The notes below the pieces were generated by a model. That model was not told where the DNA came from. It saw nothing but the letters and a program-made list of their open reading frames with translations, and made no database searches. Positions 10,101-50,644 of a stretch of 64,000 nucleotides of DNA are shown piece after piece. The stretch lies in assembly GCA_045630845.1 (NCBI GenBank), contig JAZQTP010000045.1, positions 16,526 to 80,525 on the forward strand, given 5' to 3'. This DNA is from Anaerotignum sp. GTDB lineage: Bacteria; Bacillota; Clostridia; Lachnospirales; Anaerotignaceae. The stretch's first letter is position 1. The number at the start of each line of letters is the position of its first letter. A program made the translations under genes and the position numbers.

Positions 10101-10227
10101 TGATTTGTGGTTGAGCGATTGGGATAGATAAATTTTGTCTTGCAAGCGGGAATATTATTGCAAAAACGCTATGATTTTTGTAAAGCAAGCGTTATCTATA
10201 TCTCGAATAATTCAATAAATATTTGCA

Positions 10228-10267: not shown

Positions 10268-10317
10268 CATATATGGGATATTTCGATTTCAAGCGGGGGG
10301 CTTCTGGCTGCTTCTGA

Positions 10318-10347
10318 TTGACATAATGGATGAAAAACGGGTATAAT
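10318..10347 (+). promoter_or_regulatory. consensus sigma-A promoter of the GH13 gene
   Basis: TTGACA (10318-10323), 18-nt spacer, TATAAT (10342-10347). Confidence 0.6.
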
Positions 10348-10385
10348 ATTCCCATTGCTTGATAAAAGGATAAGGTGGTGTATGT

Positions 10386-12434
10386 ATGCCAGAGAGAGAA
10401 CTATCCGGCATTTTTTTGTCTGCTGCGGAATTTCGTGCACAGGCAGTATATAGTGATGAAACAATGCAATTTCGTTTTCCCGTTGAGCCTCTTTCTACGG
10501 ATGAGGTAACGGTTCGGCTTCGTGTGGGGCAGGGGAGCTTTTCCGCTGTTTTTTTATGCACAGCGGAAAGAGAGTATCTGATGGAGGAAGAGGAGAATGA
10601 TGGTATTTTTCAGTATTATAGTGTCGTGCTTCCGCCAACAGAAAAAAAGATTTGCTATATTTTTCGCTTGCAATATGGCGAAGCAGAGGCTTTTTATACA
10701 AAATACGGCTATGCAGAAGAATTTAAGGGCGAAGGCTTCTTTGAAATCATCCGTGATTTTACAACGCCGGATTGGGCAAAGGGTGCGGTTATGTATCAAA
10801 TCTACCCTGACCGCTTCTGCAATGGCGACACTTCCAATGATGTAAAAACCAATGAATATCTGTATTTGAATCGAATGGTGGCGCAGGTGGAGAACTGGGA
10901 AACGCCGCCGGCAGCAACAGATGTCAATCATTTTTACGGAGGAGATTTGCAGGGGGTTATCCATAAGCTGGATTATCTGAAGGAGCTGGGGATAGAGGTC
11001 ATTTATTTTAATCCGCTATTTGTTTCCCCCAGTAATCATAAATATGATGCACAGGATTATCACCATATTGATCCCCATTTCGGAAAAATCGTAAGGGATG
11101 GTGGGCAAGTGCTGCAATCAGACGCAGTAACCAATGAGGCTGCGACCATGTATGCTATCCGTACTACCAGCGAGGAAAATCTGACCGCTTCCGACTGGTT
11201 GTTCATCGAATTGGTGGAGAAAGCCCACGCAAGAGGGATTCGTGTGTTGGTAGACGGTGTATTCAACCATTGTGGTGCGTTCCATAAATGGTTGGATAGA
11301 GAGGGTTTTTATAAAAACAGCGAAAAAGGTGCTTATCAGCACGAAACAAGCATTTATCGGGATTATTTTTACTGGAAAGAAGATGGCAGCTACGAAGGCT
11401 GGTGGGATTATGAAAATCACCCCAAGTTGAATGAAGAAGGCTGTGCCGAGCTGAAGCAGGAAATTCTGGATATTGGGAAAAAATGGGTTTCTGCGCCATT
11501 TCATGCAGATGGCTGGCGTCTGGATGTGGCGGCAGACCTTGGGAAAACAGAAGCTTTCAATCATCAGTTTTGGGCAGAATTTCGGGATGCCATAAAAGGT
11601 GTTTCCGCAGATAAGCTGATTTTGGCAGAGCATTATGGCGATGCCTCTGGCTGGCTGCAGGGCGATGAATGGGATTCCATCATGAACTATGATGCTTTTA
11701 TGGAGCCGATTACATGGTTTTTGACCGGTGTTTCCAAGCATAGCACGGAAGAAAGAGAAGATATGTATAATGATGCGGATATATTCTGGCGAACCATGAT
11801 TTATCAGATGGGCAAGCTCCCAATTCAAGCGTTGATGGTTTCCATGAATGAGCTTTCCAATCACGACCATTCTCGGTTTTTGACCAGAACAAACCGCAGA
11901 GTCGGCAGATTGCAGACAGATGGCACAGAGGCTGCCTCCAGAGGAACGGATAAGGCAGTTTTGCGGGAAGCGGTGCTGCTGCAGATGACATGGCTCGGTG
12001 CGCCTACGGTTTATTATGGGGATGAAGCGGGGCTTGCTGGCTGGACAGACCCCGATAATAGGCGTACCTATCCTTGGGGCAAGGAGGACCATAGACTGAT
12101 TGCCTTCCATAAAGAGGCAATTCATTTGAGAAAAGAAAATCCGGTGCTGCGTCATGGCTCCTTGCTGCATCTTTATGGAGAGTATGGCGTGATTGCCTAC
12201 GGACGCTTTGATAGAGAGGATAAATTTGTGATTGCGCTCAATAATACCGAAGAAGTGAAAAGTCTTTTGGTGCCGGTATGGCAGATTGGCTGCGCTTTGG
12301 AGGGAGCGTTGGAATGTCGGCTGATGACCAGCAGAGAGGGCTTTTCCACTTTTGGCTTCTGTTATGCGGTAAAGGGCGGTATAGCGGAAATTACGCTGCC
12401 GCCAAAGGGTGCTGTTGTGCTAAAGGAAGTGTAA
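10386..12434 (+). CDS. glycoside hydrolase family 13 (neopullulanase / cyclomaltodextrinase / alpha-glucosidase-like)
   Basis: GH13 conserved regions DGVFNH, GWRLDVAADL, LAEHYGD and NHDHSR, preceded by DRFCNGDTSND and GGDLQG. Confidence 0.85.
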   Translation: MPERELSGIFLSAAEFRAQAVYSDETMQFRFPVEPLSTDEVTVRLRVGQGSFSAVFLCTAEREYLMEEEENDGIFQYYSVVLPPTEKKICYIFRLQYGEAEAFYTKYGYAEEFKGEGFFEIIRDFTTPDWAKGAVMYQIYPDRFCNGDTSNDVKTNEYLYLNRMVAQVENWETPPAATDVNHFYGGDLQGVIHKLDYLKELGIEVIYFNPLFVSPSNHKYDAQDYHHIDPHFGKIVRDGGQVLQSDAVTNEAATMYAIRTTSEENLTASDWLFIELVEKAHARGIRVLVDGVFNHCGAFHKWLDREGFYKNSEKGAYQHETSIYRDYFYWKEDGSYEGWWDYENHPKLNEEGCAELKQEILDIGKKWVSAPFHADGWRLDVAADLGKTEAFNHQFWAEFRDAIKGVSADKLILAEHYGDASGWLQGDEWDSIMNYDAFMEPITWFLTGVSKHSTEEREDMYNDADIFWRTMIYQMGKLPIQALMVSMNELSNHDHSRFLTRTNRRVGRLQTDGTEAASRGTDKAVLREAVLLQMTWLGAPTVYYGDEAGLAGWTDPDNRRTYPWGKEDHRLIAFHKEAIHLRKENPVLRHGSLLHLYGEYGVIAYGRFDREDKFVIALNNTEEVKSLLVPVWQIGCALEGALECRLMTSREGFSTFGFCYAVKGGIAEITLPPKGAVVLKEV

Positions 12435-37150: not shown

Positions 37151-37326
37151 GAAAATGTCACAGAATTGGCACCGGACTGCCAAGAATTGGCACTGGTATT
37201 CCGTATCTTTGGCATTTGGGTTGTGGTAAAATGATAGTAGCTAAAAGTGGCAAAATAATATGAGAATGGGCTGCACTTGATTTTATGATCGGGTGTTTTT
37301 TTATGCCCAGATTTAGGAGGTAAGTG

Positions 37327-37692
37327 ATGAATAAAAGATTGAAAGAAGAATTTTCTGCTCGCTTGGCTCAGGCTGGGCACTTAACGTTTTGTACGGTAAC
37401 GATGTTGGCATACATGGCTAAACCAGTCTATGCCAATGTGACGATTTGGGAGAAAGCAACGGAAATCATGTCTGATCTATATGGAGAAATCGTTGCGATT
37501 TCTACCATTGCTGCTGTTGTGACTGCTGCGATTGCGCTATTGATGATGAACTTTTCCCGTAGTGGCAGAACAGTAGATGAATCCAGAGCATGGCTGAAGC
37601 GCATTATTATCACTTGGGCAATTATCAATGGTTTGGGCTTTATCATGTCCTATATCACACCATTTTTCTCCGGTGGTCAGTGGACACCTTGA
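37327..37692 (+). CDS. VirB2/TrbC-like small membrane protein (putative T4SS pilin-like subunit)
   Basis: Signal-like N-terminus ending PVYA, then two hydrophobic helices (IVAISTIAAVVTAAIALLMM and IIITWAIINGLGFIM). ATG at 37327, 6 nt after AGGAGG. Confidence 0.45.
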   Translation: MNKRLKEEFSARLAQAGHLTFCTVTMLAYMAKPVYANVTIWEKATEIMSDLYGEIVAISTIAAVVTAAIALLMMNFSRSGRTVDESRAWLKRIIITWAIINGLGFIMSYITPFFSGGQWTP

Positions 37693-37781
37693 TAGGCATA
37701 GAACCGTGTGCTAAACTAAAATCAGTTATAAAAAAGATTTTACTGTTTGATTGAAATACTCAAATGATCGAGGAGAATAAA

Positions 37782-38978
37782 ATGGTGAATAGTTACATTG
37801 ATTTTAGCAAGCAACAATTACCTAAGATATACAAAAGACAAGGAAAAAACTGCTATTTAGATCCAATTAGAGAAAAACTAATATTTATTACACCGGAAGA
37901 AACTGTTAGACAACAGGTGATTTCATATTTATTGAATGTTTTAAATGTTCCTGCAAAAATGATTGATGTAGAAATACATCTTTCTCATTATGGCATTAAA
38001 TCAAAGCATAGAGTAGATATATTGATTAATAAATATAACGAGAGTAATAATTCATTGGAACCTCTTTGTGTTATAGAATGTAAAGCGCCTACAATTATGT
38101 TGGGAGAGTCTGTTCGGAATCAAATGGTTGATTACTGTGATGAACTTGGATGTAATTATTCTATGATTACAAATGGCCATGATGTTCAATGTTATCATTA
38201 TGATGACAATAAAAGTGCTTATATAGCAATAAAAGAATTGCCAAAGTATTTAGACCTGGTAAAAGGTGAGTATGTGGAACTGCCTGATAACAAGATTCTA
38301 CCCCGCTTGCAATTTGAAGAATTATTCGAAAATGAAAATTGGAGAGCATACATTTATTCAGATATGGGTGAGGCAATAACAAAAGAGCTTGCTATTCCAA
38401 TGGTTAATTTTTGGGAAGGCTTAATTTATCCAGAACACAAATTCCCTAAAAAAGACTTCAAGTTATTTTCAGTGATTGATGATTTGGGTGTTAGATTGCT
38501 TTCTTATGGAAATGCATCTGGGGGAAAGTTTCAGGGACCATATCGTTCTTTTTTGGTCGAATATAATGGCAGTACTGAAATTGTTTCTTTGGGCTTTTCT
38601 ACATATCTTACTACAGCTAAACCAGATGTTGTTCGCACTTGTATAAGTGTGGCAATAGATAATGAAAAAGATACGCATCACGCACTACAATTAGTTGTTG
38701 ATGATAATGTATCTGTAATAGGTTCTAAAGTAACATTTTACCACCATGGGAGAATTGGCATTAGCAATAAGGGAAGTGGAAAGATTGATGAATTGAGACA
38801 ATTTGTTTCAGAACTTTATCCTGAAATAATCCATGGAAAAAGATTTAATCTGGGTACTTTGGAAAATGATCATTTATGGAATCTCGATGAAGATGATATG
38901 ATAAAAGTAATTGAAAATTTTATATCATATGCACTTGTAAGAGATGAATATCGTAATTTTGTTAAAAATAACAGGTAA
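37782..38978 (+). CDS. HsdR_N-like PD-(D/E)xK nuclease-domain protein with an unassigned 250-aa C-terminal region (AT-rich cargo)
   Basis: PEETVRQQVISYLL...HRVDILINKY...PLCVIECKAP...YSMITNG matches the type I restriction enzyme R-protein N-terminal domain pattern (D...E-x-K). ATG at 37782 after GAGGAG. Confidence 0.6.
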   Translation: MVNSYIDFSKQQLPKIYKRQGKNCYLDPIREKLIFITPEETVRQQVISYLLNVLNVPAKMIDVEIHLSHYGIKSKHRVDILINKYNESNNSLEPLCVIECKAPTIMLGESVRNQMVDYCDELGCNYSMITNGHDVQCYHYDDNKSAYIAIKELPKYLDLVKGEYVELPDNKILPRLQFEELFENENWRAYIYSDMGEAITKELAIPMVNFWEGLIYPEHKFPKKDFKLFSVIDDLGVRLLSYGNASGGKFQGPYRSFLVEYNGSTEIVSLGFSTYLTTAKPDVVRTCISVAIDNEKDTHHALQLVVDDNVSVIGSKVTFYHHGRIGISNKGSGKIDELRQFVSELYPEIIHGKRFNLGTLENDHLWNLDEDDMIKVIENFISYALVRDEYRNFVKNNR

Positions 38979-39100: not shown

Positions 39101-40894
39101 ATGTCTTTGGGAATTCTTGACGGTATCGTAGAATGGATCGCCGAACAGGTGATGAACATTCTGGATATGATCAATACCTCTGTGCTGGGGGCTTTGGGAT
39201 GTAACATGGAAACATTCCTCAGATATTTCCCGGCGGCAGAGACCTTTTACAGTATCATCGTTGCGTTGGCCGTTGGGCTTTTGATGCTGAACCTGATATT
39301 CCAGCTTCTTAGAAACTTTGGGATTATGAACAGCGGTGAAGCAGAGAATCCGGTCAGTCTGACAGCAAGAACGCTACTGTTTTTATTTCTGGCTCTCTTT
39401 ACCGATGATATATTAAATATTGTATTGAAAATAGGCGGAACACCTTTTGGCTGGATGATGTCAGAGGAGCTTCCGCCTATTAATTTTGCGGATTTCAATT
39501 CTGTATTGCTGACGATCCTTGGAGTATCTCTGAATGGGTCGATTGCTTTGATTGCCTTGATCCTTTTGGTGATGCTGGCATGGAACTATCTTAAGCTGTT
39601 GTTTGAAGCAGCAGAAAGATATGTGCTTTTGGGTGTTCTGGTCTATACCGCACCGATGGCGTTTTCCATGGGTGGCTCTATGAATACCATCAACATCTTC
39701 CGCAGTTGGTGCAGGATGCTGGGCGGTCAGATTTTTATGATCCTGATGAATGTCTGGTGCCTACGCATTTTTACATCTATGTTTGCCAATTTTATCTCTA
39801 ATCCACTTTCTTTGGAGAATGGCAATTTTCTGATCTGGTTCCTGTGTGCAATCGGTTTTCTGAAAATCTCTCAGAAAATAGATAACTTCATGCAGATGCT
39901 TGGTATCAACGTAGGCAGAACAGGTAGTTCTATGCTTGGTGAAGCAGCCATTGCCATGAGAGGTTTGGGTATGACAGGAAAGGCAATCGGTGGCGGAGGT
40001 GGTACTTCCGGGGGAAGTAGCTTCAACAGCTCCAGTAGTGAAACAATCTTGCAGGGCGGTCTGGCCGGTGCAGTCGGTAGACAGTTTAACCAGAATGCCA
40101 TCAGTAACATCACTGGCAAGAGTGACAGCATTGCATCGAATATTGCGAGGTCGGTATATAACTCCTCCATCCAGAATGGCGGTGGATTTTCTACCAATGT
40201 CATAAGTACCGTTGCAAAAGGAGACATTAGAAAAATGGGCTCTATCAAAGGGAATGACGCGGTACAGGCGTTCCAATCCTATATGGGCATTGATCGAGCG
40301 AACAATCAGAAAGAAACGACTGCAGCAGGCATGGAAAGAACTTCCGAGTCTGCTACAAGCAGCATATTTGATAACCAGAATACAAGTACATATTCCGATC
40401 GTTCCTTCGAAGGGATGCAGACATCCGTGGAACAGGTATTGGCTGAATATCAGCAGAATATCGGCATGGAATCCTTCGATACAGGAACAGAGCAGCCTGA
40501 TGGTTTCTATACACCTTTCCCAGACCATCAGGCTCCCCCTCCAGAAAACAGTGGAATCAATATAGAAAAAGGAGAAAGTTTTATACCATCTGTCAGTCCT
40601 GCATCTCAGTTCTCTCATGTGGAGATTGGCGGCGGACGGATCATGGGTACGGAAACATCAAAGGAACTTGGTGGCAGTGTGAACTTTGCCATGTATTCTA
40701 CGGATAAATATATGCCTCCTACACAGGGGGATTATAAGACAGTAACGGCTGTGGATGGTTCCAAATGGTATCACCAGTACGCACAGCCAACAGTAGTAAA
40801 AGAGCCTTATATGAAAGAGGATGGAAAGATCCAGTATAAGGAACATATTGAAAATAAATTACCGGAAGCGCCAAGGAGAAAGGATAAAATCTAA
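39101..40894 (+). CDS. VirB6/TrbL (TcpH)-like polytopic T4SS membrane protein
   Basis: Six or more TM helices in the first 300 aa, followed by a Gly/Ser-rich and polar tail; the position fits a T4SS array. The ATG at 39101 abuts the AAGGAGG RBS, so the TTG at 39107 may be the true start. Confidence 0.65.
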   Translation: MSLGILDGIVEWIAEQVMNILDMINTSVLGALGCNMETFLRYFPAAETFYSIIVALAVGLLMLNLIFQLLRNFGIMNSGEAENPVSLTARTLLFLFLALFTDDILNIVLKIGGTPFGWMMSEELPPINFADFNSVLLTILGVSLNGSIALIALILLVMLAWNYLKLLFEAAERYVLLGVLVYTAPMAFSMGGSMNTINIFRSWCRMLGGQIFMILMNVWCLRIFTSMFANFISNPLSLENGNFLIWFLCAIGFLKISQKIDNFMQMLGINVGRTGSSMLGEAAIAMRGLGMTGKAIGGGGGTSGGSSFNSSSSETILQGGLAGAVGRQFNQNAISNITGKSDSIASNIARSVYNSSIQNGGGFSTNVISTVAKGDIRKMGSIKGNDAVQAFQSYMGIDRANNQKETTAAGMERTSESATSSIFDNQNTSTYSDRSFEGMQTSVEQVLAEYQQNIGMESFDTGTEQPDGFYTPFPDHQAPPPENSGINIEKGESFIPSVSPASQFSHVEIGGGRIMGTETSKELGGSVNFAMYSTDKYMPPTQGDYKTVTAVDGSKWYHQYAQPTVVKEPYMKEDGKIQYKEHIENKLPEAPRRKDKI

Positions 40895-42418
40895 ATGGAT
40901 AATGATATGCGTAGGGCGGTAAAGACAGCAGCGATCATTCGCTATGGCGTCACAGGCCCGATTGCTGCTATGGATATGGCATGGCAGCAGAAGCATAACA
41001 TTGTAAAGGTCACATTAAGTCTTGGATTTTTACTGGTTTTGCCGGTACTTTTTTTGTGTATGCTGCCGTCTTTTATATTCGGCAGTTTTCAGCTTACGAC
41101 CGCCTGGAATGATAATGCTGTTCTCATGCAGAACATCCAGTATTATCAGACTGCGGTATGGTCTGTGATAGAGGAAGCCCATGATGATTTGCTTGAGGAA
41201 TTACAGAGCGAAGCAGAAGAGAATGAGGAGATCACAATCCTTGATGACTTTAACTACAGCTCTGTAAATACAACACTGATTTTATGTCAGTATTCTGCGG
41301 CAATGGGAACGGATGAGATCGATGTGGAGGATATTGTTTCAGTTATTTCAGCTCATAGTGCATTTTTATTTTCAAGTTCGAAAAGTGGCGCCAATACATA
41401 TCGCATTCGTTATGTCGGGGACGACTATTTCGCAGACCATATTTTTAAATTGACAGAAGAACAGAAGGAACTGGCAGAGATGTATGCCTCCAATCTGGAA
41501 CTGTTTTTATACGGCAGCAGGTTTGGCAGTGTATCAGCTCAGGTCAGTGAAGATGTTTTGAAATATAAAGACTTGGTAGAGAAATATGCCCAGAAGTACG
41601 GGATTTCGCATTTTGTTGATGTGATCAATGCCGTTATGATGGCTGAAAGCGGAGGACGGGGGCCTGATGTTATGCAGGCCAGTGAATGTCCTTATAACAA
41701 GAAATACCCCAATGAACCAAATGGTATCACTGACCCGGAGTATTCCATTGAAGTTGGGGTACATTACCTGTCGGATTGTCTGAAAGCTGCAGGCTGTACT
41801 TCTCCCAGTCAGACAGAGAAACTGAGTTTGGCATTGCAAGGATATAACTATGGGAATGGTTATATTTCCTGGGCAATAGAAAAAGATGGCGGATATACAG
41901 AAGCCAATGCACAGGAATTTTCCAAAATGATGCAAAAGAAACTGGGCTGGAGTGGATACGGTAATCCGAAATATGTCAGTGCAGTATTCAAATACTTAGT
42001 ATTCTCTGGAAATGGTATCTGGGGGTCTCCTTTTGTCGGGAAGAATTGGAATAATGCTGTTTCTTCAGAGTTTGGCTGGAGAACAGATCCATTAAACGGT
42101 AGTAAAGCTTTTCATGAAGGATTGGACATTGCGTATCCAACTGGTACAGAAATCAATGCGATTTCCGGTGGGGTTGTGACTTCCGTTGTTTATTCAAAAA
42201 AAGGGTATGGTCATCATGTCAGAGTGGATTGTGGAGATGGTGTAACAGTATTGTATGCCCATTGCAGTGATATTTTTGTAGTGAAAGGACAGAGTATTAC
42301 TGCGGGACAGGTTATTGCAGAAGTAGGCGCAACAGGGCGTGTGACAGGTGCACATCTGCATCTGGGTGTATTAGTCAATGGGGAAGAAGTGAATCCAAGG
42401 GAGTATATCAGTTCATAA
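40895..42418 (+). CDS. T4SS cell-wall hydrolase (lysozyme-like domain + M23 LytM peptidase; CwlT/TcpG analogue)
   Basis: MMAESGGRGPDVMQASECPYN (lysozyme-like family) and FHEGLDIAYPTGT...GHHVRV...GAHLHLGV (M23 metal ligands). N-terminal TM anchor. Confidence 0.8.
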   Translation: MDNDMRRAVKTAAIIRYGVTGPIAAMDMAWQQKHNIVKVTLSLGFLLVLPVLFLCMLPSFIFGSFQLTTAWNDNAVLMQNIQYYQTAVWSVIEEAHDDLLEELQSEAEENEEITILDDFNYSSVNTTLILCQYSAAMGTDEIDVEDIVSVISAHSAFLFSSSKSGANTYRIRYVGDDYFADHIFKLTEEQKELAEMYASNLELFLYGSRFGSVSAQVSEDVLKYKDLVEKYAQKYGISHFVDVINAVMMAESGGRGPDVMQASECPYNKKYPNEPNGITDPEYSIEVGVHYLSDCLKAAGCTSPSQTEKLSLALQGYNYGNGYISWAIEKDGGYTEANAQEFSKMMQKKLGWSGYGNPKYVSAVFKYLVFSGNGIWGSPFVGKNWNNAVSSEFGWRTDPLNGSKAFHEGLDIAYPTGTEINAISGGVVTSVVYSKKGYGHHVRVDCGDGVTVLYAHCSDIFVVKGQSITAGQVIAEVGATGRVTGAHLHLGVLVNGEEVNPREYISS

Positions 42419-42517
42419 ATCTGTATTCTTTAAAAAGATAAATAAATAGTTTATAATGAAAACAAGTATAGGATGTTCTTGTTTTTAGTGTATTTAAATA
42501 TGCAAGGGGAATTTTGT

Positions 42518-43006
42518 ATGGAAAAAATTACAATGGACTATTTATTAAATCATAAATTCGAGTTAACAGGTCTTGAAGAAGAGTCCGTAAATAAAACGCG
42601 CAGCAGTGGTATGTTTTCAAAGGCAGAACTGGGAATGTTGCCGCGTTCGGATACAGATAGATTTGATGATTTGAATATACTTATTACTGACATGATTTTT
42701 GATAAATTTGGAAATTTTCAAAGATTTTCTCAGAAGTCTAATTTGAATGCAGAAACAGTTAGGAAATATATTCGCGTGGGTAGTGGTAAATCTTTGTCAA
42801 AAGAAATGCTTGCGAAGTTTGTGATTGCCTGTGCGCTTTCTGTAGATGAGGCGAATAAATTATTTGAACTTCATTCTCATGTATTGCAACCTAATAAAAT
42901 TCTTTTAGATGCTGTAATCGTACATTGTTTAGAAAATAAGCACGATCTAGACGGTTTTTTTGATACATGTAAACAAGTTGGATTGAAGATCGAATATAAG
43001 GTTTAA
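42518..43006 (+). CDS. XRE-like HTH protein (162 aa), first gene of the AT-rich cargo block
   Basis: FSQKSNLNAETVRKYIRVGSGKSLSKEMLAKFVIACALSVDEANKLF is an HTH plus a helical extension. ATG at 42518 after GGGGA. Confidence 0.55.
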   Translation: MEKITMDYLLNHKFELTGLEEESVNKTRSSGMFSKAELGMLPRSDTDRFDDLNILITDMIFDKFGNFQRFSQKSNLNAETVRKYIRVGSGKSLSKEMLAKFVIACALSVDEANKLFELHSHVLQPNKILLDAVIVHCLENKHDLDGFFDTCKQVGLKIEYKV

Positions 43007-43082
43007 AACGGGATTATAGTTCCCGAATTCATTGCTTACGATTGATAAAATGGTGTTAATCATTCGTAAGGAGGGAGAACAT

Positions 43083-45716
43083 ATGGCAAAAAGAACGTTT
43101 ACTTGGGAAATCTTTCCCTATGATTTTCTGAAAGCAATTGCTTATGGAAAAGAAACACCTATAAGGTTAAGACCTAAAAGGGTATATGAAGAAAATGATA
43201 TTGAGTTTTTAGCTCCGCATGTTTCACGTATCTGTAATTATCCAGATGAGTATTTCGTTAGAAAATATCGAAAAGCAATTGAAGATTATTTTTTGAACGG
43301 AACAAACCATTTGATTCGTGTAGTGCAAAGGTTAGAGAAAATCAACTATGGTGGCGTTCATTTGGGTGAAAATGATGATATGCTTTTTGCATTACGCCAA
43401 AAAAGACTTACACAGACATTAGTTGATGTGTACTTAAATGAATTACGAATCACCGGAAAAATTGCTTTTGATGATGATGAAAGCATTTTCCGTCTGCCTA
43501 AAACGGTAGACCTCAGTTCTGCAGAACAAGATAAGGTTTCCTTGTATCCCTATCAGGAAAAAGCAGTTGCGGCGATGAATCAGTATTTTGTAAAAGAAGA
43601 TAAAAAATCTGCGATTTTATCAATGCCTACTGGCAGTGGTAAAACACGAACCAGCGTATATTATCTGCTGCATGATATGATCAGTCAGGGTTACCAGGTG
43701 ATTTGGTTATGCCATCGTTCAATGTTGATTGAACAGGCCGCAGAACAATTTTATAAATTTTCTCCAATTATCAAAGAGACGAATGGCTCTATGGATCAGT
43801 TTAAGATGGTCTGCATTTCAGGTAAACATGCCAGTGTTCGTGCTTTGGAAGAAGATGATAATCTTATTATTTCCAGTGTTCAGAGCTTATGCAACAATAC
43901 AGTGTATTTACCTAATATTTTGGCCGAAAAAGTTATGATTGTTGTAGACGAGGCACATCATACATTGGCTCCTTCGTATAGACGAATTATTAAAGCGGTC
44001 AGAGAGAAAAGACCTGATGCCAAGCTTTTGGGGCTTACTGCAACACCTGTTCGTTTGACAGAAAAAGCGACAGGACAGTTGATGAAAATATTTGATAACA
44101 AGATTGTGTATTCTGTTTCAATGAGCGATTTAATTGCTGATAAGACATTGGCAACACCTAAATACGTTCCTGTTGAAACGAATGTTGATATTGAAACCCT
44201 TATTAATATCGACGAACGAAAATATATTGCAAAATGGGGCGAATTTCCAGAGTCTTTGGTAATGAAAGTGGCAAAGACAAATGAACGAAATGAAGTCATT
44301 GTAAATGAGTATGTAAAAAACAAAGAAAAGTATGGCAAAACAATTATTTTTGCATTAAATGCTGTTCATTGTGACTCGTTAAATGAAGCTTTTAAGAAAA
44401 AAGGTATTCGCAGTGGCTATGTTTATACTTTAATCGGCAACGCAGAAAACCAGAAAACCATTGATCGTTTCCGTCATAATGAGGATGAAGATGGAATTGA
44501 TGTTTTGATCAATATCAATATTTTAACAGAAGGTAGTGATATTCCAGATATTCAGACTGTTTTTCTTACAAGACCTACTACCAGTGATGTTTTATTGATG
44601 CAGATGGTTGGTCGAGGCATGAGAGGCCCTGGCTGTGGTGGTACAGAAACTGTTAATATTGTAGACTTTTGCGATAAATGGACAAGTATCACTAGTTGGT
44701 TAAATCCTAAGTTCATTTGTGGAACAGAAGAGCCTGACGATGAAGAATTTGAACGAAAGCCATATAAACAGAACTTAATTCCGATGGATGCAATTCGTGA
44801 TATCGTGAAAGGAATTAGTTATAAAGGTGAATATGCGGATATTCGAGAAATGACATTACCAATTGGCTGGTTTGATGTTATTGATGAGTATGGTAATGAC
44901 ACAAAGGTTTTAGTATTTGAAAATCAATTACAGGGATATGATGCTTTCAAAGTGGATGTAGAACGCTATTTTGAGGATGATAAAGTAAGCACTCAGGATC
45001 TGATTGTAAAGTATTTCAGAGATTTTGGGATGCTTCCTGACAAAAACGATTTGAATGATATCCTGCGCTATATTAAACAGGAGAAAGAATTCCCAGAGTT
45101 ATGCAGTTTTGAAATTCGAGATAAGATTGATCCCTTTACTATAGCTGAAACGATTAAAAAGGGAGACATGACTTATAGCGATACAATGAAATGTATCAAG
45201 GATGCTTATGAACAAAATAAAGAGATAACAGAAAGTCTTTATGGCAGTTTTGAATATTACAAAAAAAGAGTATCAGACTGCTTAATGTTTCCAAAAGGGA
45301 TTGTTCCTCTTGGTACAAGATTGGAAGAAGTAGATAAAGAAGTTTTCCATCTGTCTAAAGAGCCTCTTGCAGAAAGTATTGAAGAACTTTTAGCAGAAGT
45401 GATTGAGGAAAATAAAGAGCACCTGGGACAGGATTTTATTGTGCCGGAGATTCATTGGACAGATCGTCCTCTGGGGGGCTTTTGGGGAAGATACATTCAT
45501 GACTATAATTTGATTCAAATGAATGCTCTTTTAAATTCTGAAAGCATTGATAAAGAAGTAGTCAAGTTCGTGATTTATCATGAGTGCCTGCATCAATTCT
45601 ATAAAGGACATCCCAAGGAATTTTATGAAAAAGAGCACTTGTATAAAGACTTCCAGAAGCATCAGCATTTTCTTGATTATGCACTTCGTGATTTTGATAT
45701 GGATTTTGATTATTGA
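43083..45716 (+). CDS. SF2 (DEAH) helicase with unassigned N-terminal and middle regions and a C-terminal DUF45/YgjP-like HExxH metallopeptidase motif
   Basis: Motif I MPTGSGKT, motif II VVDEAHH, motif III LTATP and motif VI QMVGRGMRG. The C-terminal VIYHECLHQFYKGHPKEFY has H-E-x-x-H-x5-H-[SP]-K-x-F-[WY] spacing, as in YgjP-type proteins. ATG at 43083 after AAGGAGGGAG. Confidence 0.75.
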   Translation: MAKRTFTWEIFPYDFLKAIAYGKETPIRLRPKRVYEENDIEFLAPHVSRICNYPDEYFVRKYRKAIEDYFLNGTNHLIRVVQRLEKINYGGVHLGENDDMLFALRQKRLTQTLVDVYLNELRITGKIAFDDDESIFRLPKTVDLSSAEQDKVSLYPYQEKAVAAMNQYFVKEDKKSAILSMPTGSGKTRTSVYYLLHDMISQGYQVIWLCHRSMLIEQAAEQFYKFSPIIKETNGSMDQFKMVCISGKHASVRALEEDDNLIISSVQSLCNNTVYLPNILAEKVMIVVDEAHHTLAPSYRRIIKAVREKRPDAKLLGLTATPVRLTEKATGQLMKIFDNKIVYSVSMSDLIADKTLATPKYVPVETNVDIETLINIDERKYIAKWGEFPESLVMKVAKTNERNEVIVNEYVKNKEKYGKTIIFALNAVHCDSLNEAFKKKGIRSGYVYTLIGNAENQKTIDRFRHNEDEDGIDVLININILTEGSDIPDIQTVFLTRPTTSDVLLMQMVGRGMRGPGCGGTETVNIVDFCDKWTSITSWLNPKFICGTEEPDDEEFERKPYKQNLIPMDAIRDIVKGISYKGEYADIREMTLPIGWFDVIDEYGNDTKVLVFENQLQGYDAFKVDVERYFEDDKVSTQDLIVKYFRDFGMLPDKNDLNDILRYIKQEKEFPELCSFEIRDKIDPFTIAETIKKGDMTYSDTMKCIKDAYEQNKEITESLYGSFEYYKKRVSDCLMFPKGIVPLGTRLEEVDKEVFHLSKEPLAESIEELLAEVIEENKEHLGQDFIVPEIHWTDRPLGGFWGRYIHDYNLIQMNALLNSESIDKEVVKFVIYHECLHQFYKGHPKEFYEKEHLYKDFQKHQHFLDYALRDFDMDFDY

Positions 45717-45730
45717 TTGGGGAGATAAAA

Positions 45731-46834
45731 ATGAAAAAAGTGGTTTTCTGCGAAGTAACATGGATGAAATATTATGCAGGGGTTACTGAAAAAGATCGCC
45801 CCAAAAATGGTGGTAAACATATTAAAGAAAACGAAACAGGTGGTGAGGTTTATAACTTCACCCCATATAATCACAAATGCTATGGATACGTAATGCATTA
45901 CGGGGATGAGTTACATATAGAACGTTATGCTAAAGTCTTAAAAAGTTCTGATGAAGTACGAGATATGACTGTAGTATGGGTTGCATCTGATGGTGTGAGC
46001 AGTAAAATCGTGGGATGGTATGAACATGCTCAAATGTTTCGGTATTGGCAATCCTATTATGATATTGAGTACAGCGGTGACAGCTATAATTATTATAACT
46101 TTGTAGCTGATGAAAAGGACTGTTACTTAATTGATGAAAAAGAGCGTTCTTTTGTCATTCCAAGAGCAATTATTGCAGGTAAAGGTAGAGGTATGGGGCG
46201 ATCTCAGATCTGGTATGCAGATTCTCAGTATGCACAGGATGAGTTTGTGCCTAAAGTATTAATGTATCTCGAATCCATGAAAGATAAATGCATTCCTATA
46301 CGCCTGTTGCCTGAAGAATTGGCGAAGGTTGCAGAAGATCATGGAGAAACAACGGATGAATTACTTGAAAAAGCAATGAATCTACTTTCCGATGAGAATG
46401 GATCTCTGCACACTGCAGCTGAACTTATAAACCTTGCTATTAAAAAAGAGGATTGCTATAAAACAAGAGCGGCAAAAGGCAAGTTGTTTTATAGTATCGG
46501 ATGGTATGATGAGGCAGAGGAAGAATATAAATTAGCTTTGTATCACGAAGAGGTAGTAGAAGCTATGGCAGATCTTATGTATGTTGAATTAATGCTGGGG
46601 AACACTTTTATTGCAATAGATTTAGGTGAAAAAATCAGAAAACGTAAATCAGAGGATGACGCATGGATTTATATTTCTGGTAATCTTGCATTTGCATATA
46701 TCAATGAGCATGAACTGGATGCTGCTACTCTTTTGATAAAAGAATGCGAAAATGATACAAGCAGGGAATATTCCTGGATTGCTTATGCCAAAGAGTTAAT
46801 CGTAGATATAAGAAAAGAAATAAAGAGGCAATAA
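45731..46834 (+). CDS. hypothetical protein (367 aa): unrecognised N-terminal domain + TPR-like C-terminal helical repeats, translationally coupled to the helicase
   Basis: ATG at 45731, 15 nt after the helicase stop, with a GGGGAG RBS. The C-terminal region (...GKLFYSIGWYDEAEEEYKLALY...GNLAFAYINEHELDAA...) looks like TPR. Confidence 0.6.
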   Translation: MKKVVFCEVTWMKYYAGVTEKDRPKNGGKHIKENETGGEVYNFTPYNHKCYGYVMHYGDELHIERYAKVLKSSDEVRDMTVVWVASDGVSSKIVGWYEHAQMFRYWQSYYDIEYSGDSYNYYNFVADEKDCYLIDEKERSFVIPRAIIAGKGRGMGRSQIWYADSQYAQDEFVPKVLMYLESMKDKCIPIRLLPEELAKVAEDHGETTDELLEKAMNLLSDENGSLHTAAELINLAIKKEDCYKTRAAKGKLFYSIGWYDEAEEEYKLALYHEEVVEAMADLMYVELMLGNTFIAIDLGEKIRKRKSEDDAWIYISGNLAFAYINEHELDAATLLIKECENDTSREYSWIAYAKELIVDIRKEIKRQ

Positions 46835-46978
46835 GAATAAAGATGGATATTATGTGCAATCAAAAAACGGGATAAATAATACCGGATTCAGATTTCAACT
46901 CTTGTTATTATATAGCCACAGAAGGGGAACAGAAACCCACTGGATAAGAGTTATATATAGCAATTGGAGGGATCTATT

Positions 46979-47358
46979 ATGAATACACAGCGAATCACAA
47001 ATATTCATGAAGATATTGTTAAGGTACTGATTTCTAACTTGGAAAAAATCCTGGACGCGCAATTCTTACATATGAGGATTTATGTAACAGAATCGGAAAT
47101 CAGGTTCATTGTAGAACTGTTGCAGGTTATTTGGGCGATATTTCATGTTGGTGTGATGAAATCGGAGCACCAATGTTGTCTGTTCTGGTAATAAACAAAC
47201 ACGAAAATCGACCAGGAAAAGGGTTCTTTAGATTATATTCTGACTTGCATGGTATGCCGGTTAAATCTTTAGATGAAGAACTGGTTTTTGTTACAGAACT
47301 TAAGAAAGTTATGAAATATCGCAAATGGACTGAACTGAAATATTATTTAGGTATCTAG
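46979..47358 (+). pseudogene. small winged-helix-like gene split by a frameshift near an A6 run (about 47044-47049)
   Basis: Frame A reads MNTQRITNIHEDIVKVLISN.... Frame B continues GKNPGRAILTYEDLCNRIGNQVHCRTVAGYLGDISCWCDEIGAPMLSVLVINKHENRPGKGFF...LGI-stop. Joined, they give one protein of about 125 aa. Confidence 0.6.
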
Positions 47359-47406
47359 AAGTAAATGTACTTCATACATAATCTCACACTCTCTTACTCT
47401 AAAAGT

Positions 47407-47440
47407 CGGGTTGCATAATTGTTTATGCAGCTCGATTTTT
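47407..47440 (+). terminator. intrinsic terminator closing the cargo block
   Basis: 12-bp stem cgggttgcataa / ttatgcagctcg (two G-U pairs), 4-nt loop, then attttt. Confidence 0.75.
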
Positions 47441-47758
47441 AATTTATGGAGAAAAAGAAATACCAAGAATAAACTTAATTCTTTTATAATCATATTATTG
47501 TCTATTCGTAACGAATATGATAATAAAACTATATTTTTTGAAAGAAAAGGAATATAATATTATAATATATTTAAATCATAAACAGAAGATTTCAAATGTT
47601 CTGAAGAGGAGGTATTAAAGCTGCTATGAAAGATAAGAAGGAACAACGAGTTGAAAAAGCAAAAAAAGTGCGGCATTTGCTGTTCCAGTTGTAGTTACAG
47701 TTTTTAATAAAGGTAAAATTATAATTCAAAACATTAAAAGATAAATATATAAAAGATT

Positions 47759-47795
47759 AACAACCTCTTTTTAAATGAAAGAGGTTGTTTTATTT
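47759..47795 (+). terminator. intrinsic terminator immediately upstream of the VirB3-VirB4 gene
   Basis: 10-bp stem caacctcttt (47761-47770) / aaagaggttg (47778-47787) followed by ttttattt. The GAGGAG RBS of the next gene starts 4 nt later. Confidence 0.75.
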
Positions 47796-47803
47796 GCTGA
47801 GGA

Positions 47804-50644
47804 GTGGTTGTTATTACAAATAAAAGAAATGAACGAGATATATTTATAATTCCGACAAATTTTCTTAATGAAGGTTTGATTTTTGGCGGTATGTTAAAAC
47901 TAAGAAATGCAATAGAGGCTGTTGTTTTGGTAATAGGAATTACGATCCCAATACTGAAAATAACAGCCCTTTCTTTTACAGGAAAGACCATAGCATTATG
48001 CCTGACAGCATTGCCAATCGGCATTTTTGCTCTGATCGGTATTGGAGGAGAAAGCCTGACCGCATTTCTGATGAATTTCTTCCGTTTTTTTCGAAACAGA
48101 AAAGTGCGTTATCGTACTGATGCCATTCCAAAAGAGGAAAAGGTAAGAATATCTATCCTGCAGGCAGACGGGGAATGGCCGGAGGAATACGGAGAAGAAA
48201 AGCTAAAGAAGAAAAGAAAGGAGAAAAAGCGGAAATTAAATGAGCCGTTCCCCGTTGAGAAAATCGAGAACGGCATCTGTTATCTGAGAGATAAACGGTA
48301 TATCAAAATCATTGAAGTAGAACCCATCAACTTCCTTTTGCGTTCTGCGAGGGAGCAGAGAAACATTATTTACTCCTATATGTCCTATCTGAAGATCAGT
48401 CCTGTACGGATGCAGATCAAGGTGATTTCCAAAAAGGCTGATATTTCGAGCCATCTGGATAAGATACAGGAGGAAATCAAAAAGGAACAGGATGAGAGAT
48501 GTAAGATCCTGCTGATGGACTATTATAATTTGATTCGTCGTATCGGGCTGAAAGAAGCCGTAACACGGCGTTTTTTTATTGTCTTTGAGTATGAGCCTAT
48601 CCCCGGCGGCAGTAAGAAAAATGAGGAAAAGGATGCGGTCAATCAGTTGGAGATTGCAGAAAGAACGGCAAGGACATATCTCATGCAGTGCGGTAACAAT
48701 GTGGTCGAGCATGAGGATGCCAATGCGTTTATGGCAGAGGTCTTATATATGCTTTTGAATCGGAAGACCAGCACAGAGATTTCCTTTTCTGAAAGAGCTG
48801 CTGCAGAAGTCGGGAAGCATATGGCGGAAGGGGATGCCAATTTTATTCCCATATCCGCATTTATCATGCCGGAAGAGATGGATTTCAGAAAAGCAGGCTA
48901 CAGCATTATCGACGGTCTATACTACTCATATTTTATGATACCCTCTGACGGGTATAAAACACAGGTAACAGCAGGATGGCTTTCCTTACTGGTCAACGCA
49001 GGGGAAGGCATTGATGTAGATATCTTTCTGAGTAAGGAACCGAAGGAAAAAGTACAGTTCCAGTTAGGCAGACAGATCCGTATCAATCGCTCCAAAATGA
49101 AGGAAACGTCGGATACCAATACGGATTTTGATGACATTGATTCTGCAGTTCGGTCCGGGTATTACCTGAAGGATGGACTGGCGAATAACCAGGACTTTTA
49201 CTACATCAACACCCTTATCACCATTACGGCAGATAGTCCCGAAGAACTGGAATGGCGTACCAATGAGATGAAAAAACTGATGTTATCTCAGGATCTGCTA
49301 CTGAAGCCCTGTTATTTCCGTCAGGACTTAGCCTTTGCGTCGGTTCTGCCGTTGAATAAGCTCCACAAGAGCATATATGAACTAAGTAGGCGAAATGCTT
49401 TAACTACAGGTGCAGCGAGCTGCTATCCTTATGTCAGTTTTGAAATGAGTGATGATAACGGTATCCTGCTGGGGGTCAATAAGTACAATAACTCACTTAT
49501 CATCGTGGATATCTTCAATTCCAAGATATATAAGAATGCCAATATGGTACTGCTTGGAACTTCTGGCGCTGGGAAGACTTTTACCATGCAGCTGATGGCA
49601 CTGAGACTTAGAGAAAAGAATATCCAAACCTTTATTCTGGCACCTCTGAAAGGGCATGAGTTCCGTAGAGCCTGTCATAACATTGGTGGAGAGTTTATTC
49701 AGATATCGCCTGCGTCCAAAAACTGCATTAATATCATGGAAATCAGAAAAACAGACCGTACAGCGAGTATGCAGTTGGATGGAGATGCTAATGAACGTTC
49801 TGAATTATCAGCAAAGATTCAGCGTCTTCATATCTTCTTTTCACTATTGATACCAGATATGACTCATGAGGAACGGCAGCTTTTGGATGAGGCGATGATT
49901 AAGACATACACTGAAAAAGGTATCACCCACCAGAATGAGTCCTTATATGAGCCTACAGGTGCTTATAAACCTATGCCGATATTAGGGGATCTTCATAAAG
50001 TTCTGATAGAAAATATTGAAACGAAGCGAATGGCTAATATTTTAAACCGTTTAGTCAATGGCTCTGCCAGTACTTTCAACCAACAGACAAATGTAAAACT
50101 GGATAATAAGTACATCGTTCTGGATATTTCAGAACTGACAGGTGACCTTCTGACAGTTGGGATGTTTCTTGCGTTGGATTATGTCTGGGATAAAGCGAAA
50201 GAGGATAGAACGCAGGAAAAAGCCATCTTTATCGATGAAGTTTGGCAGCTCATAGGTGCATCCAGTAACCGATTGGCTGCAGAGTTTGTACTGGAAATCT
50301 TCAAAATCATTCGTGGTTATGGCGGTGCTGCCATCTGTGCCACACAGGATATCAATGACTTTTTGGCATTGGACGACGGGAAATATGGCAAGGGCATCAT
50401 CAATAACAGTAAGACGAAAATCGTACTGAATTTGGAGGATGAAGAAGCGCAGAGAGTGCAGAGCATCTTGAATCTAAGTGATACAGAAATTATGAATATC
50501 ACACACTTTGCTCGCGGGAATGGCTTAATTCTCACCAATAACAATAATGTTACAGTGGAGTTTAAGGCATCACAGCTGGAAACGGAAATGATCACGACCG
50601 ACAGAGAACAGTTGAAAGAGATTATACGCAATAAAAACGCATAG
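47804..50644 (+). CDS. VirB4-family conjugation ATPase fused to an N-terminal VirB3/PrgI-like two-TM segment
   Basis: Walker A LLGTSGAGKT and Walker B IFIDEVWQL. The N-terminal 110 aa carry two hydrophobic helices (AIEAVVLVIGITIPILKI and IALCLTALPIGIFALIGIG). The start codon is ambiguous: a GTG overlapping the RBS, or an ATT at 47813. Confidence 0.85.
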   Translation: MVVITNKRNERDIFIIPTNFLNEGLIFGGMLKLRNAIEAVVLVIGITIPILKITALSFTGKTIALCLTALPIGIFALIGIGGESLTAFLMNFFRFFRNRKVRYRTDAIPKEEKVRISILQADGEWPEEYGEEKLKKKRKEKKRKLNEPFPVEKIENGICYLRDKRYIKIIEVEPINFLLRSAREQRNIIYSYMSYLKISPVRMQIKVISKKADISSHLDKIQEEIKKEQDERCKILLMDYYNLIRRIGLKEAVTRRFFIVFEYEPIPGGSKKNEEKDAVNQLEIAERTARTYLMQCGNNVVEHEDANAFMAEVLYMLLNRKTSTEISFSERAAAEVGKHMAEGDANFIPISAFIMPEEMDFRKAGYSIIDGLYYSYFMIPSDGYKTQVTAGWLSLLVNAGEGIDVDIFLSKEPKEKVQFQLGRQIRINRSKMKETSDTNTDFDDIDSAVRSGYYLKDGLANNQDFYYINTLITITADSPEELEWRTNEMKKLMLSQDLLLKPCYFRQDLAFASVLPLNKLHKSIYELSRRNALTTGAASCYPYVSFEMSDDNGILLGVNKYNNSLIIVDIFNSKIYKNANMVLLGTSGAGKTFTMQLMALRLREKNIQTFILAPLKGHEFRRACHNIGGEFIQISPASKNCINIMEIRKTDRTASMQLDGDANERSELSAKIQRLHIFFSLLIPDMTHEERQLLDEAMIKTYTEKGITHQNESLYEPTGAYKPMPILGDLHKVLIENIETKRMANILNRLVNGSASTFNQQTNVKLDNKYIVLDISELTGDLLTVGMFLALDYVWDKAKEDRTQEKAIFIDEVWQLIGASSNRLAAEFVLEIFKIIRGYGGAAICATQDINDFLALDDGKYGKGIINNSKTKIVLNLEDEEAQRVQSILNLSDTEIMNITHFARGNGLILTNNNNVTVEFKASQLETEMITTDREQLKEIIRNKNA

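Follow-up and report, generated by a model that had tools for sequence, protein, structure and literature searches.

Between the cell-wall hydrolase gene and the VirB4-like ORF of an ICE, the window (the whole 64-kb stretch of DNA analysed here) carries a self-contained cargo cassette, located at a cargo hot spot of the element. The cassette encodes an SF2 helicase fused to a zinc peptidase domain together with a partner protein, which recur as a unit in other genomes, and the N-terminal domain of the partner, here called parN, belongs to a large family found in restriction enzymes. The cassette putatively encodes a restriction-like defence complex acting on invading DNA, a reader-guided translocase-peptidase, a reading that is given an even chance of being correct. 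The features of the cassette and its borders are listed in Table 1.

Table 1. Position of the cassette, its genes and domains, and the neighbouring genes in the window.
Feature	Position	Strand	Evidence
Cell-wall hydrolase gene, 5' neighbour of cassette	ends 42418
Whole cargo cassette (four genes, promoter-like site, terminator)	42412..47444	+	homology borders and GC
Candidate sigma-70-like promoter, TTTAAA-17-TATAAT	42429..42457	+	consensus scan, 10/12 matches
Small protein, 162 aa, possible HTH regulator	42518..43006	+	longer ORF starts 42473; HTH around residues 65-117
SF2 helicase/translocase fused to zinc peptidase domain, 877 aa	43083..45716	+	ResIII E = 7.5e-27; Helicase_C E = 3.6e-14
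Helicase N-terminal helical domain (residues 1-148), proposed docking site for partner TPR	43083..43526	+	all-helical in AF2 model
Helicase middle region (about residues 536-750)	44688..45332	+	model residues 546-612 low confidence
C-terminal YgjP-like/minigluzincin zinc metallopeptidase domain, HECLH...H	45363..45716	+	Pfam and PDB profile match
Ribosome-binding site of partner gene, GGGGAGA	45720..45726	+	sequence reading; 3 nt past helicase stop
Partner, 367 aa	45731-46834	+	ATG 45731
Beta-rich N-terminal domain of partner (parN, residues 1-190), putative reader of DNA or modified DNA	45731..46300	+	AF2 pLDDT mostly >84
Partner C-terminal TPR domain	46301..46834	+	helical repeats, pLDDT 92-98
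Fourth gene, frameshifted in window; intact form 126 aa	46979..47358	+	tblastn and DNA alignment with L169
Intrinsic terminator ending cassette	47400..47441	+	19-bp stem, -24.5 kcal/mol, z = -8.8, then UUUUUAAUUU
VirB4-like ORF, 3' neighbour of cassette	starts 47804

The cassette is cargo of an ICE

The region had been described as an AT-rich block inserted as cargo into the T4SS array, and every feature described for it could be found in place. The GC content across 42-47 kb is 0.353-0.361, compared to 0.40-0.46 in the flanking T4SS genes and 0.42-0.53 in most of the window. Nucleotide homology to ICE relatives breaks at 42409-42411 and restarts at 47798-47831. ICE relatives were recovered as 80 loci with VirB4 proteins 59-88% identical, and about 50 of these also contain the hydrolase gene. 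Presence of the same block in all relatives would have pointed to ICE backbone; the cassette was absent from all 80 loci, and the hydrolase-VirB4 interval of the approximately 50 relatives with the hydrolase gave no cassette match. The junction in relatives is occupied by other cargo of 22-2980 nt, including HipA-like toxin-antitoxin genes. The same cassette is present at this site in one contig of a related ICE (L171), and it has therefore been associated with the ICE lineage for some time. For the cassette copies L169 and L171, homology to the window ends at 47440 and 47444, respectively.

The candidate promoter is located directly behind the stop codon of the hydrolase gene. Promoter-like sites in the AT-rich cassette region are not enriched compared to shuffled sequences, which weakens this candidate. 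The strong terminator that had been noted at the end of the block was confirmed as a stable hairpin.

A zinc peptidase domain at the C-terminus of the helicase

The motifs MPTGSGKT, VVDEAHH, LTATP, QMVGRGMRG and HECLHQFYKGHPKEFY are present in the helicase translation, and the SF2 core is complete, as had been reported. In 36 helicase homologues, Walker A, the DEAH box and motif VI show no variation, and the nearest folds are those of RadD, SauUSI, XPB and HsdR. Neither the N-terminal domain nor the middle region had a significant match in Pfam or the PDB. The middle region shows no catalytic signature; only P, G, W, F and Q residues are fully conserved there.

The assignment of the HExxH domain to the YgjP/DUF45 type held up. 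When the domain was scanned alone, it scored 26.8 bits with the Pfam YgjP-like model (cut-off 26), and its profile matched projannalysin MJ1213 (4QHF-J, 4JIX) in the PDB with E = 2.3e-5. Residues H833, E834, H837 and H843 are all invariant among homologues. According to the preliminary description, genes of the YgjP/DUF45 type may commonly be located beside type I R-M genes. Like the minigluzincins and YgjP-like proteins (PF01863), the domain is a catalytic unit of about 110 residues in which HExxH is followed further downstream by a His; unlike these, it is appended to the C-terminus of a helicase of 877 aa.

The helicase stop codon TGA (45714-45716) is followed by the ribosome-binding site and the ATG of the partner gene, in agreement with the translational coupling proposed earlier. 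The start codons of the three main genes are consistent with their homologues.

Helicase-peptidase and partner form a conserved unit

Of 80 genomes, counted at species level, that contain a relative of the partner, 25 have the helicase-peptidase gene directly 5' of the partner gene, and the trio of small protein, helicase-peptidase and partner likewise recurs in 25/80. The two genes co-occur in unrelated genomes, and the identities of helicase and partner to their counterparts in the window rise and fall together (r = 0.94, n = 17). Natroniella acetigena (L077) encodes a direct fusion of parN to the helicase-peptidase; the helicase N-domain and the TPR are both missing from this protein, with parN standing where the helicase N-domain would be.

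Several module sites are chromosomal, outside any ICE and with no mobile-element genes nearby, and ordinary metabolic genes are neighbours at several module loci. PADLOC analysis of 102 proteins neighbouring module loci, a scan without background control, resulted in strong matches to BrxP, DpdE, PDC-S01, PDC-S05 and a DRT protein. For the block itself the PADLOC match is limited to the generic helicase core, which agrees with its earlier placement outside the named systems.

The four-gene content and the 162-aa ORF of the preliminary description were recovered, but its assignment of the small protein to the XRE-type HTH proteins could not be established, as family matches consisted only of a weak HTH_26 hit in 3 of 13 members (E = 0.0066) and the hhalign result was non-significant. 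Homologues of 153-168 aa are located directly 5' of the helicase gene in module loci; at L043, which has no helicase, the homologue lies directly 5' of the partner gene. The small protein is probably a transcriptional regulator.

The fourth gene is broken into two overlapping 75-aa ORFs (46964-47191 and 47131-47358). DNA alignment revealed a 1-nt deletion in the A-run at 47043-47048, which is A6 in the window and A7 in L169, and in tblastn the intact L169 protein was 92% identical to the window gene, split over two reading frames. The gene is unbroken in L169, L170 and L171. The frameshift had thus been recognized correctly, but the winged-helix call was not established, as the MGMT-type winged-helix match had only E = 0.23.

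parN belongs to a large family with restriction-enzyme architectures

The partner had been described as an unrecognised N-domain followed by a TPR-like C-terminal half, and both parts were confirmed. For the C-terminal half, Foldseek retrieved only TPR proteins (E around 1e-4). For parN, Pfam and PDB sequence and profile searches gave no match, Foldseek gave none either, with the matches swamped by the TPR half, and no similarity to single EVE or SRA sequences was detectable. The partner is more than the repeat scaffold described before: parN belongs to a very large family, with 2455 representative clusters, whose members are found in restriction enzymes at the place of the DNA reader. Among 33 multidomain proteins, fusions of parN to HNH and to HNH_2 were matched by 7 members each, and 19 of 24 proteins of about 320 aa combine parN with DUF3883/NOV_C. 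Further architectures are SRA-parN-HNH and EVE-parN-McrB GTPase, the latter directly followed by McrC. In two genomes, hsdR of a type I R-M locus is followed by a free-standing protein consisting of parN only, and another such protein adjoins DndB. Proteins with parN are also encoded on 17 plasmids, and in two Ruminococcus phages one is present as an opposite-strand insert among tail genes.

Parts of this distribution could also be explained by an abortive-infection type of sensor-effector system, in which the TPR would sense a phage protein, parN would be a toxic or enzymatic effector on DNA and the helicase-peptidase would be an accessory amplifier or regulator. In 16 genomes the parN-TPR gene forms a two-gene module with an HTH-like gene and any further enzyme is missing, and at L043 the small protein and the partner are the sole components; the 16 genomes fit parN as effector instead of reader and count against the restriction-like reading. 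The parN polar residues D22, E39, N42, R104 and R139 are invariant or nearly so in a diverse alignment, and the TPR-S sensor repeat model is matched by some family members, both in favour of such a system. However, parN gave neither a known catalytic motif nor a fold match, it is repeatedly fused to dedicated nucleases (HNH, DUF3883), its place between EVE and the McrB GTPase is that of a DNA-binding module, and the free-standing parN proteins adjoining hsdR lack the TPR. An abortive-infection system is therefore considered rather unlikely.

Relation to known systems

SauUSI-type ATP-dependent type IV enzymes consist of a PLD nuclease, an SF2 helicase and a DUF3427 reader, which is sometimes a separate protein. 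The restriction-like complex proposed here would resemble them in combining an SF2 translocase with a separate or fused DNA-reader module, the reader role of parN being proposed, and SauUSI is among the nearest structures to the cassette helicase (rank 6, E = 2.3e-14). Moreover, parN occupies architectural slots that are filled by DUF3427, namely reader-DUF3883, PUA-type reader with second reader and nuclease, and helicase with reader (PMC6765204). In contrast to the SauUSI type, the cassette has no PLD or other nuclease domain, parN is not DUF3427 by Pfam or PDB-sequence search, the helicase bears a zinc peptidase domain and the putative reader a TPR domain.

With HsdR of type I R-M systems the helicase shares the ResIII-type motor and matches to HsdR/EcoAI models and HsdR structures, and free-standing parN proteins follow hsdR, but it scores far below the family cut-offs and lacks the N-terminal PD-(D/E)xK nuclease domain, and hsdM and hsdS are absent from the cassette. 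McrBC and the single-chain modification-dependent endonucleases (SRA-HNH, EVE-HNH, DUF3427-DUF3883) are similar in that parN is found inside SRA-parN-HNH, parN-DUF3883 and EVE-parN-McrB with McrC, whereas the window partner has a TPR in place of their nuclease or GTPase and is paired with a helicase-peptidase.

ArdC, an anti-restriction protein of conjugative plasmids with an ssDNA-binding and a metalloprotease domain, overcomes the recipient hsdRMS and is, like the cassette product, directed to nucleic acid, equipped with a zinc protease domain and encoded on a conjugative element (PMC7213743). By analogy, a DNA-tracking metalloprotease could destroy restriction complexes of the recipient and thereby protect the incoming ICE. 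The zinc peptidase domain on the helicase and the location of the cassette inside the ICE transfer operon, a position shared by the copy in the ICE L171, are consistent with such an establishment function. It is nevertheless improbable, as the related ICE loci recovered lack the cassette, the same trio occurs at chromosomal sites without nearby mobile-element genes, most copies of the module being chromosomal, the ArdC N-domain was not detected by Pfam, and the module is tied to restriction-type domains, with parN relatives being parts of restriction enzymes and not of anti-restriction proteins. A DNA-repair module, carried as a fitness gene, in which a RadD-like helicase and a SprT/Wss1-like protease would remove DNA-protein crosslinks, is very improbable: structural comparison and NCBIfam both gave RadD as the top match (E = 1e-15 and E = 2.3e-31, respectively), and a weak SprT match (E = 0.025) and a precomputed SprT-like Pfam match in one homologue were found, but the matches are limited to the generic SF2 core, with 108.7 bits for the RadD model far below its cut-off of 720, and the module, of foreign base composition, shows a patchy distribution with horizontal transfer as well as links to defence genes and restriction-type domains.

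Proposed mechanism

In the restriction-like reading, for which the defence role is suggested by these associations, parN would bind DNA and might recognise a feature of it that is modified or foreign in some other way. The TPR half of the partner may dock on the helical N-domain of the helicase and tether the reader to the motor, a contact suggested by the single fusion protein in which both are missing. The SF2 motor, nearest in fold to RadD, HsdR and SauUSI, would then translocate along DNA driven by ATP. The C-terminal zinc hydrolase, the only other catalytic centre, might serve as the effector or as a switch, cleaving for instance a host protein or one bound to DNA. Pfam and PDB searches identified no nuclease domain anywhere in the cassette, which counts against a restriction-like mechanism, and to our knowledge there is little precedent for restriction without a nuclease. 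The parN family is a new finding, and judged by its domain architectures it appears to behave like the DNA readers of type IV restriction systems.

Layout and sequence signals of the cassette

The preliminary description had placed four genes in an AT-rich block between the hydrolase and VirB4 genes of the ICE, with coupling signals between helicase and partner, a frameshifted fourth gene and a strong terminator at its end. The ORF map agrees with this layout, and the GC content is 0.353-0.361 over 42-47 kb against 0.40-0.46 in the neighbouring transfer genes. All signals for the coupling of helicase and partner are present, namely the TGA stop at 45714-45716, a GGGGAGA sequence and the partner ATG at 45731, and the terminator was found as a stable hairpin. 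The frame of the fourth gene (126 aa when intact) is broken by a 1-nt deletion in the A-run 47043-47048 (A6 vs. A7) and is unbroken in three other cassette copies; the deletion may be an error of sequencing or assembly, or else reflect a genuine pseudogene or a switch that is prone to slippage. The best matches of the fourth gene were to the MGMT DNA-binding domain, at E = 0.23 only.

Features of the cassette and its surroundings in the window
Feature	Position	Remarks
AT-rich segment outside the cassette	37324-38978	GC 0.32-0.37
Hydrolase gene	ends 42418	Lysozyme_like and M23
Candidate promoter	42429-42457	TTTAAA-17-TATAAT, directly 3' of the hydrolase stop; such sites are no commoner than in shuffles of this AT-rich DNA
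Small-protein ORF	42518-43006	162 aa
Helicase-peptidase ORF	43083-45716	877 aa
Partner ORF	45731-46834	367 aa
Fourth gene	46964-47358	two overlapping 75-aa ORFs
Terminator hairpin	47400-47441	19 bp, -24.5 kcal/mol, z = -8.8
Segment between terminator and VirB4	47445-47787	not common to L171
Promoter-like site	47538-47566	near-consensus, 11/12
Short ORF	47627-47692	GAGGAGG site and 21-aa ORF
Hairpin	47759-47789	13 bp, ending just 5' of the VirB4 start
VirB4-like ATPase gene	starts 47804	TraG P-loop

The segment between the cassette terminator and VirB4, with its promoter-like site, short ORF and hairpin, could serve the transfer genes downstream as a leader or attenuator.

The cassette is cargo at a hot spot of the ICE family

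The claim that the block is cargo was tested by its presence in ICE relatives. A metagenome scan yielded 80 related ICE loci with a VirB4-like protein of 59-88% identity, and helicase, partner and small protein were absent from all 80. The gap between the hydrolase and VirB4 genes measures 5386 nt in the window and 22 nt, ∼450-700 nt, 1.1 kb, 1.6 kb or 3.0 kb in the relatives, and nucleotide homology to the relatives ends at 42409-42411 and restarts at 47798-47831. This identifies the block as cargo and the hydrolase/VirB4 junction of this ICE family as a hot spot for it. The longer gaps in relatives are filled by other cargo, among it a 462-aa ATPase, a HipA-like toxin-antitoxin pair and single proteins of 356 and 498 aa, and cargo of the addiction or defence type thus accumulates at this junction. 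Junction copies with such other cargo were located in L092 (7016-9995), L096 (3869-5469), L105 (4117-5235) and L091 (3534-5106), and the HipA-like kinase has a small upstream partner. An exact look-up of the hydrolase protein of the window returned no record.

The four-gene cassette was found at the same site in the Logan contig L171, a related ICE with ∼76% DNA identity over 39154 to 48321. In L169 it adjoins an SSB gene (partner identity 95%), and in L170 it belongs to an element that also encodes an integrase and toxin-antitoxin proteins. Homology of the cassette extends as far as the terminator, to 47440 in L169 and to 47444 in L171.

The AT-rich segment at some distance upstream resembles a second cargo insertion. 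It encodes a 404-aa protein in which HSDR_N_2, the N-terminal domain of type I restriction R-subunits, was recognized at E = 7e-24; a 122-aa ORF lies upstream of this gene, and the gap between the flanking genes for a 172-aa protein and a 597-aa membrane protein is 1951 nt in the window vs. ∼700 nt in ICE relatives.

The 877-aa protein combines an SF2 helicase with a putative zinc peptidase

The SF2 core had been described as complete, and Pfam identified both ResIII (E = 7.5e-27) and Helicase_C (E = 3.6e-14). GSGKT (Walker A), DEAHH, TATP and QMVGRGMRG (motif VI) are invariant among 36 homologues with 45-80% identity, and the nearest folds to the AF2 helicase model (mean pLDDT 77) were RadD, SauUSI, XPB and HsdR. 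The protein is thus an SF2 helicase/translocase of the ResIII/DEAD plus Helicase_C type.

A DUF45/YgjP-type HExxH domain had also been proposed for its C-terminus. Members of the YgjP-like/minigluzincin group were defined by an HExxH zinc site with a third ligand, a compact fold of ∼110 residues and a score over the Pfam cut-off. The C-terminal 138 residues alone scored 26.8 bits against the YgjP-like model (PF01863, cut-off 26), whereas the whole protein scored 22.4 bits and fell under the cut-off. A profile of the domain from 19 homologues matched the minigluzincin projannalysin (E = 2.3e-5), and H833, E834, H837 and H843 are invariant in the 36 homologues. The domain is therefore assigned to the YgjP-like/minigluzincin group, marginally by score and consistently across homologues. 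For the helical N-domain of the helicase (residues 1-148) and its middle region (∼536-750), no match was obtained with Pfam, profile searches against PDB sequences gave noise, and neither region contains a nuclease-like constellation of conserved acidic and basic residues.

An XRE-like HTH protein had been proposed for the small ORF upstream; such a regulator was defined by a significant match to an HTH_3, HTH_26 or HTH_31 model, and the Pfam scan found no HTH domain in the 162-aa sequence of the window. HTH_26 was weakly matched by 3 of 13 members of its family (best E = 0.0066), hhalign against a family of HTH_3-like genes (c2) aligned the expected region with a probability of only 0.6%, and comparison with PDB sequences gave noise only.

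The partner carries TPR repeats behind a widespread N-terminal domain

The AF2 model of the partner (pLDDT 91.6) consists of a beta-rich N-domain of ∼190 residues, here named parN, and a C-terminal half of TPR repeats. These repeats, already suspected, were predicted with pLDDT 92-98 over residues 200-367 and led Foldseek to consensus TPR, MamA and PilF (E ∼1e-4); Pfam TPR did not match the partner of the window, yet is present in some homologues. The C-terminal half is a TPR repeat protein. With the whole model, Foldseek against PDB and BFVD returned TPR matches only and none for parN.

parN itself had no match in Pfam, NCBIfam, PADLOC or PDB sequences. Pfam searches with 24 parN sequences found nothing, two parN profiles (A3 and A7) gave nothing significant against PDB sequences, and hhalign detected no similarity to single EVE and SRA sequences. 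An exhaustive profile search identified 2455 representative clusters (50% identity) at E <= 1e-3, of which 1818 were found at E <= 1e-10. parN occurs as free-standing proteins of ∼190 aa, in parN-TPR proteins, and fused to DUF3883 (NOV_C, a PD-(D/E)xK nuclease) in 19 of 24 proteins of ∼320 aa. Among 33 multidomain proteins examined, HNH and HNH_2 each matched seven, and SRA-parN-HNH and SRA-parN architectures were found as well. A McrB homologue in L180 (2042-5346) is built of EVE, parN, AAA_5 and McrB_lid, in this order, and is directly followed by McrC and then a Cas9-Cas1 locus. In L084 and L088 (∼1585-11760) a complete type I R-M locus (hsdS, hsdM, hsdS and a 1060-aa hsdR) precedes a 195-aa parN-only protein and a 318-aa PIN_12 protein, and one further parN-only gene adjoins a DndB gene. 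parN genes were also present on 17 plasmids, where they are annotated merely as DUF3883 or HNH proteins.

DUF3427 and PUA-type readers hold these same architectural slots in modification-dependent restriction enzymes (PMC6765204), from which we infer, by analogy, that parN may be a DNA-reading module. A PUA-like/DUF3427-like reader was defined by a PUA-type beta-barrel with a base-binding pocket and by binding of modified DNA; the parN model is beta-rich and its architectures are of the reader type, and comparisons of sequences and profiles with EVE, SRA, Pfam and PDB sequences gave no similarity.

Two Ruminococcus phages carry parN as an opposite-strand insert among their tail genes, which is the layout of a phage moron. 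In phage NatCom_29429 (PV036441.1; L177, 4962-5939) the gene encodes a 325-aa protein between the tape-measure and tail genes, and the second instance is PV036433.1.

Helicase and partner recur together in unrelated genomes

Partner homologues formed 134 clusters and near-full-length helicase homologues more than 120. Co-occurrence of the two genes elsewhere had been set as a check, and the order small protein, helicase-peptidase, partner indeed recurs in Jutongia huaianensis, Phascolarctobacterium, Selenomonas, Ruminococcus and others. Sites of this module are often chromosomal with unrelated neighbours, and some lie outside mobile elements. Over 80 species-representative loci with a partner relative, the gene directly upstream encoded the helicase-peptidase in 25, a ∼190-aa HTH_3-like protein in 16, a DUF1292 protein in four, hsdR in two (the partner being parN only), a fusion of parN and helicase-peptidase in one, the small protein only in one and other proteins in 24; upstream sequence was lacking in seven. 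Helicases that resemble that of the window more closely have partners that do so as well (r = 0.94, n = 17, for the identities). Together, the genes make up a conserved and mobile module that has no name.

In Natroniella acetigena (L077, 9995-12976) a single 993-aa protein comprises parN, helicase core, middle region and peptidase, with neither the helicase N-domain nor the TPR. A fusion would be expected to dispense with these two parts if their usual role is to join the two proteins, and we infer that they tether the partner to the helicase.

Modules of the Negativicutes type contain an extra Cys-rich gene of 341-368 aa between helicase and partner (L005 8953-9978; L034 8874-9905; L172 10858-11964). 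Its sole match was a faint one to the PcrA/UvrD tudor domain (E = 0.015), and the window does not contain this gene. A PADLOC scan of 102 proteins encoded next to module loci, which had no background control, gave strong matches to BrxP, DpdE, PDC-S01, PDC-S05 and a DRT protein; metabolic genes neighbour other module loci.

The module differs from the named systems compared

The preliminary description could place the cassette in no named system, and in a PADLOC v2.0.0 scan the helicase core alone matched, to PbeA, type IV and type I REase models, PsyrT, DpdF and Cas3; the small protein had a stray weak match only and the partner none. Hachiman, Gabija, Druantia, DISARM, Zorya, Mokosh, Hna, Shango, Azaca and Rst_HelicaseDUF2290, all ten presumably covered by this version, gave nothing above noise, SngC (E = 0.0037, among the generic helicase-core matches) being their sole trace.

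Membership in four systems was rejected because their defining features are absent. The match to PbeA, the best one in PADLOC, is limited to the helicase core (profile positions 242-617 of 672), and small protein, partner and fourth gene had no PADLOC match relevant to PbeABCD. Compared with type I R-M, no nuclease domain was found in the helicase, where HsdR has an N-terminal PD-(D/E)xK nuclease, the cassette contains neither methyltransferase nor specificity genes, and the EcoAI model scored 89 bits vs. a cut-off of 550. SauUSI combines a PLD nuclease with a DUF3427 target-recognition domain, whereas Pfam finds neither in helicase or partner; among PDB sequences, the parN profile did not retrieve that of SauUSI, even with E values up to 10 allowed. 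The fourth, ArdC, is considered below.

Database names for the module proteins are generic (DEAD/DEAH box helicase, tetratricopeptide repeat protein, AAA family ATPase). A literature search on YgjP, DUF45, COG1451, PF01863, SprT or M48 with helicase, defence or restriction found nothing relevant, and no description of this gene combination was found in the open-access literature.

Discussion

The best-supported view of the cassette is that of a variation on restriction-like systems rather than a named system. We consider the chances about evenly balanced that it is a restriction-like defence complex, in which a parN reader, held by the TPR, would guide an SF2 translocase that carries the zinc peptidase. 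As judged from the sequence, this peptidase would be the only catalytic centre of the cassette besides the ATPase, and motors that track along DNA do not usually have an effector of this kind.

An abortive-infection layout with parN as the effector is rather unlikely; two-gene modules of an HTH gene and parN-TPR leave room for it, and the reader-type architectures of parN point to DNA reading. An anti-restriction role like that of ArdC is quite improbable. An ArdC system was defined by an N-terminal ssDNA-binding domain, a C-terminal metalloprotease and confinement to conjugative elements; the cassette has no ArdC-N domain in Pfam, and the module also occurs in chromosomal contexts beyond mobile elements. 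Participation of the helicase-peptidase in DNA repair is very improbable.

The restriction-like reading can be extended to the joint proposal that parN is a new, widespread reader family of (modified) DNA and that the cassette is an immune system that is driven by ATP and works without a nuclease, its zinc peptidase degrading the proteins attached to invading DNA; we regard this joint proposal as unlikely in its entirety. The targets would be, e.g., terminal proteins, packaging or protective proteins, or relaxases, and the system would thus act by proteolysis and not by DNA cutting.

The most valuable by-product of the analysis is the parN family of ∼2,500 clusters, for which Pfam has no model and sequence comparison detects no relative with a known structure. 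It lies within McrBC, HNH, DUF3883 and type I R-M contexts, and once its ligand is defined, a new class of specificity could come to light among modification-dependent restriction enzymes. Such enzymes are of use as epigenetic tools and help to explain what limits gene transfer. The cassette itself, should it give protection from phages or plasmids, would be a further system with a wide distribution among Bacillota of the gut and rumen.
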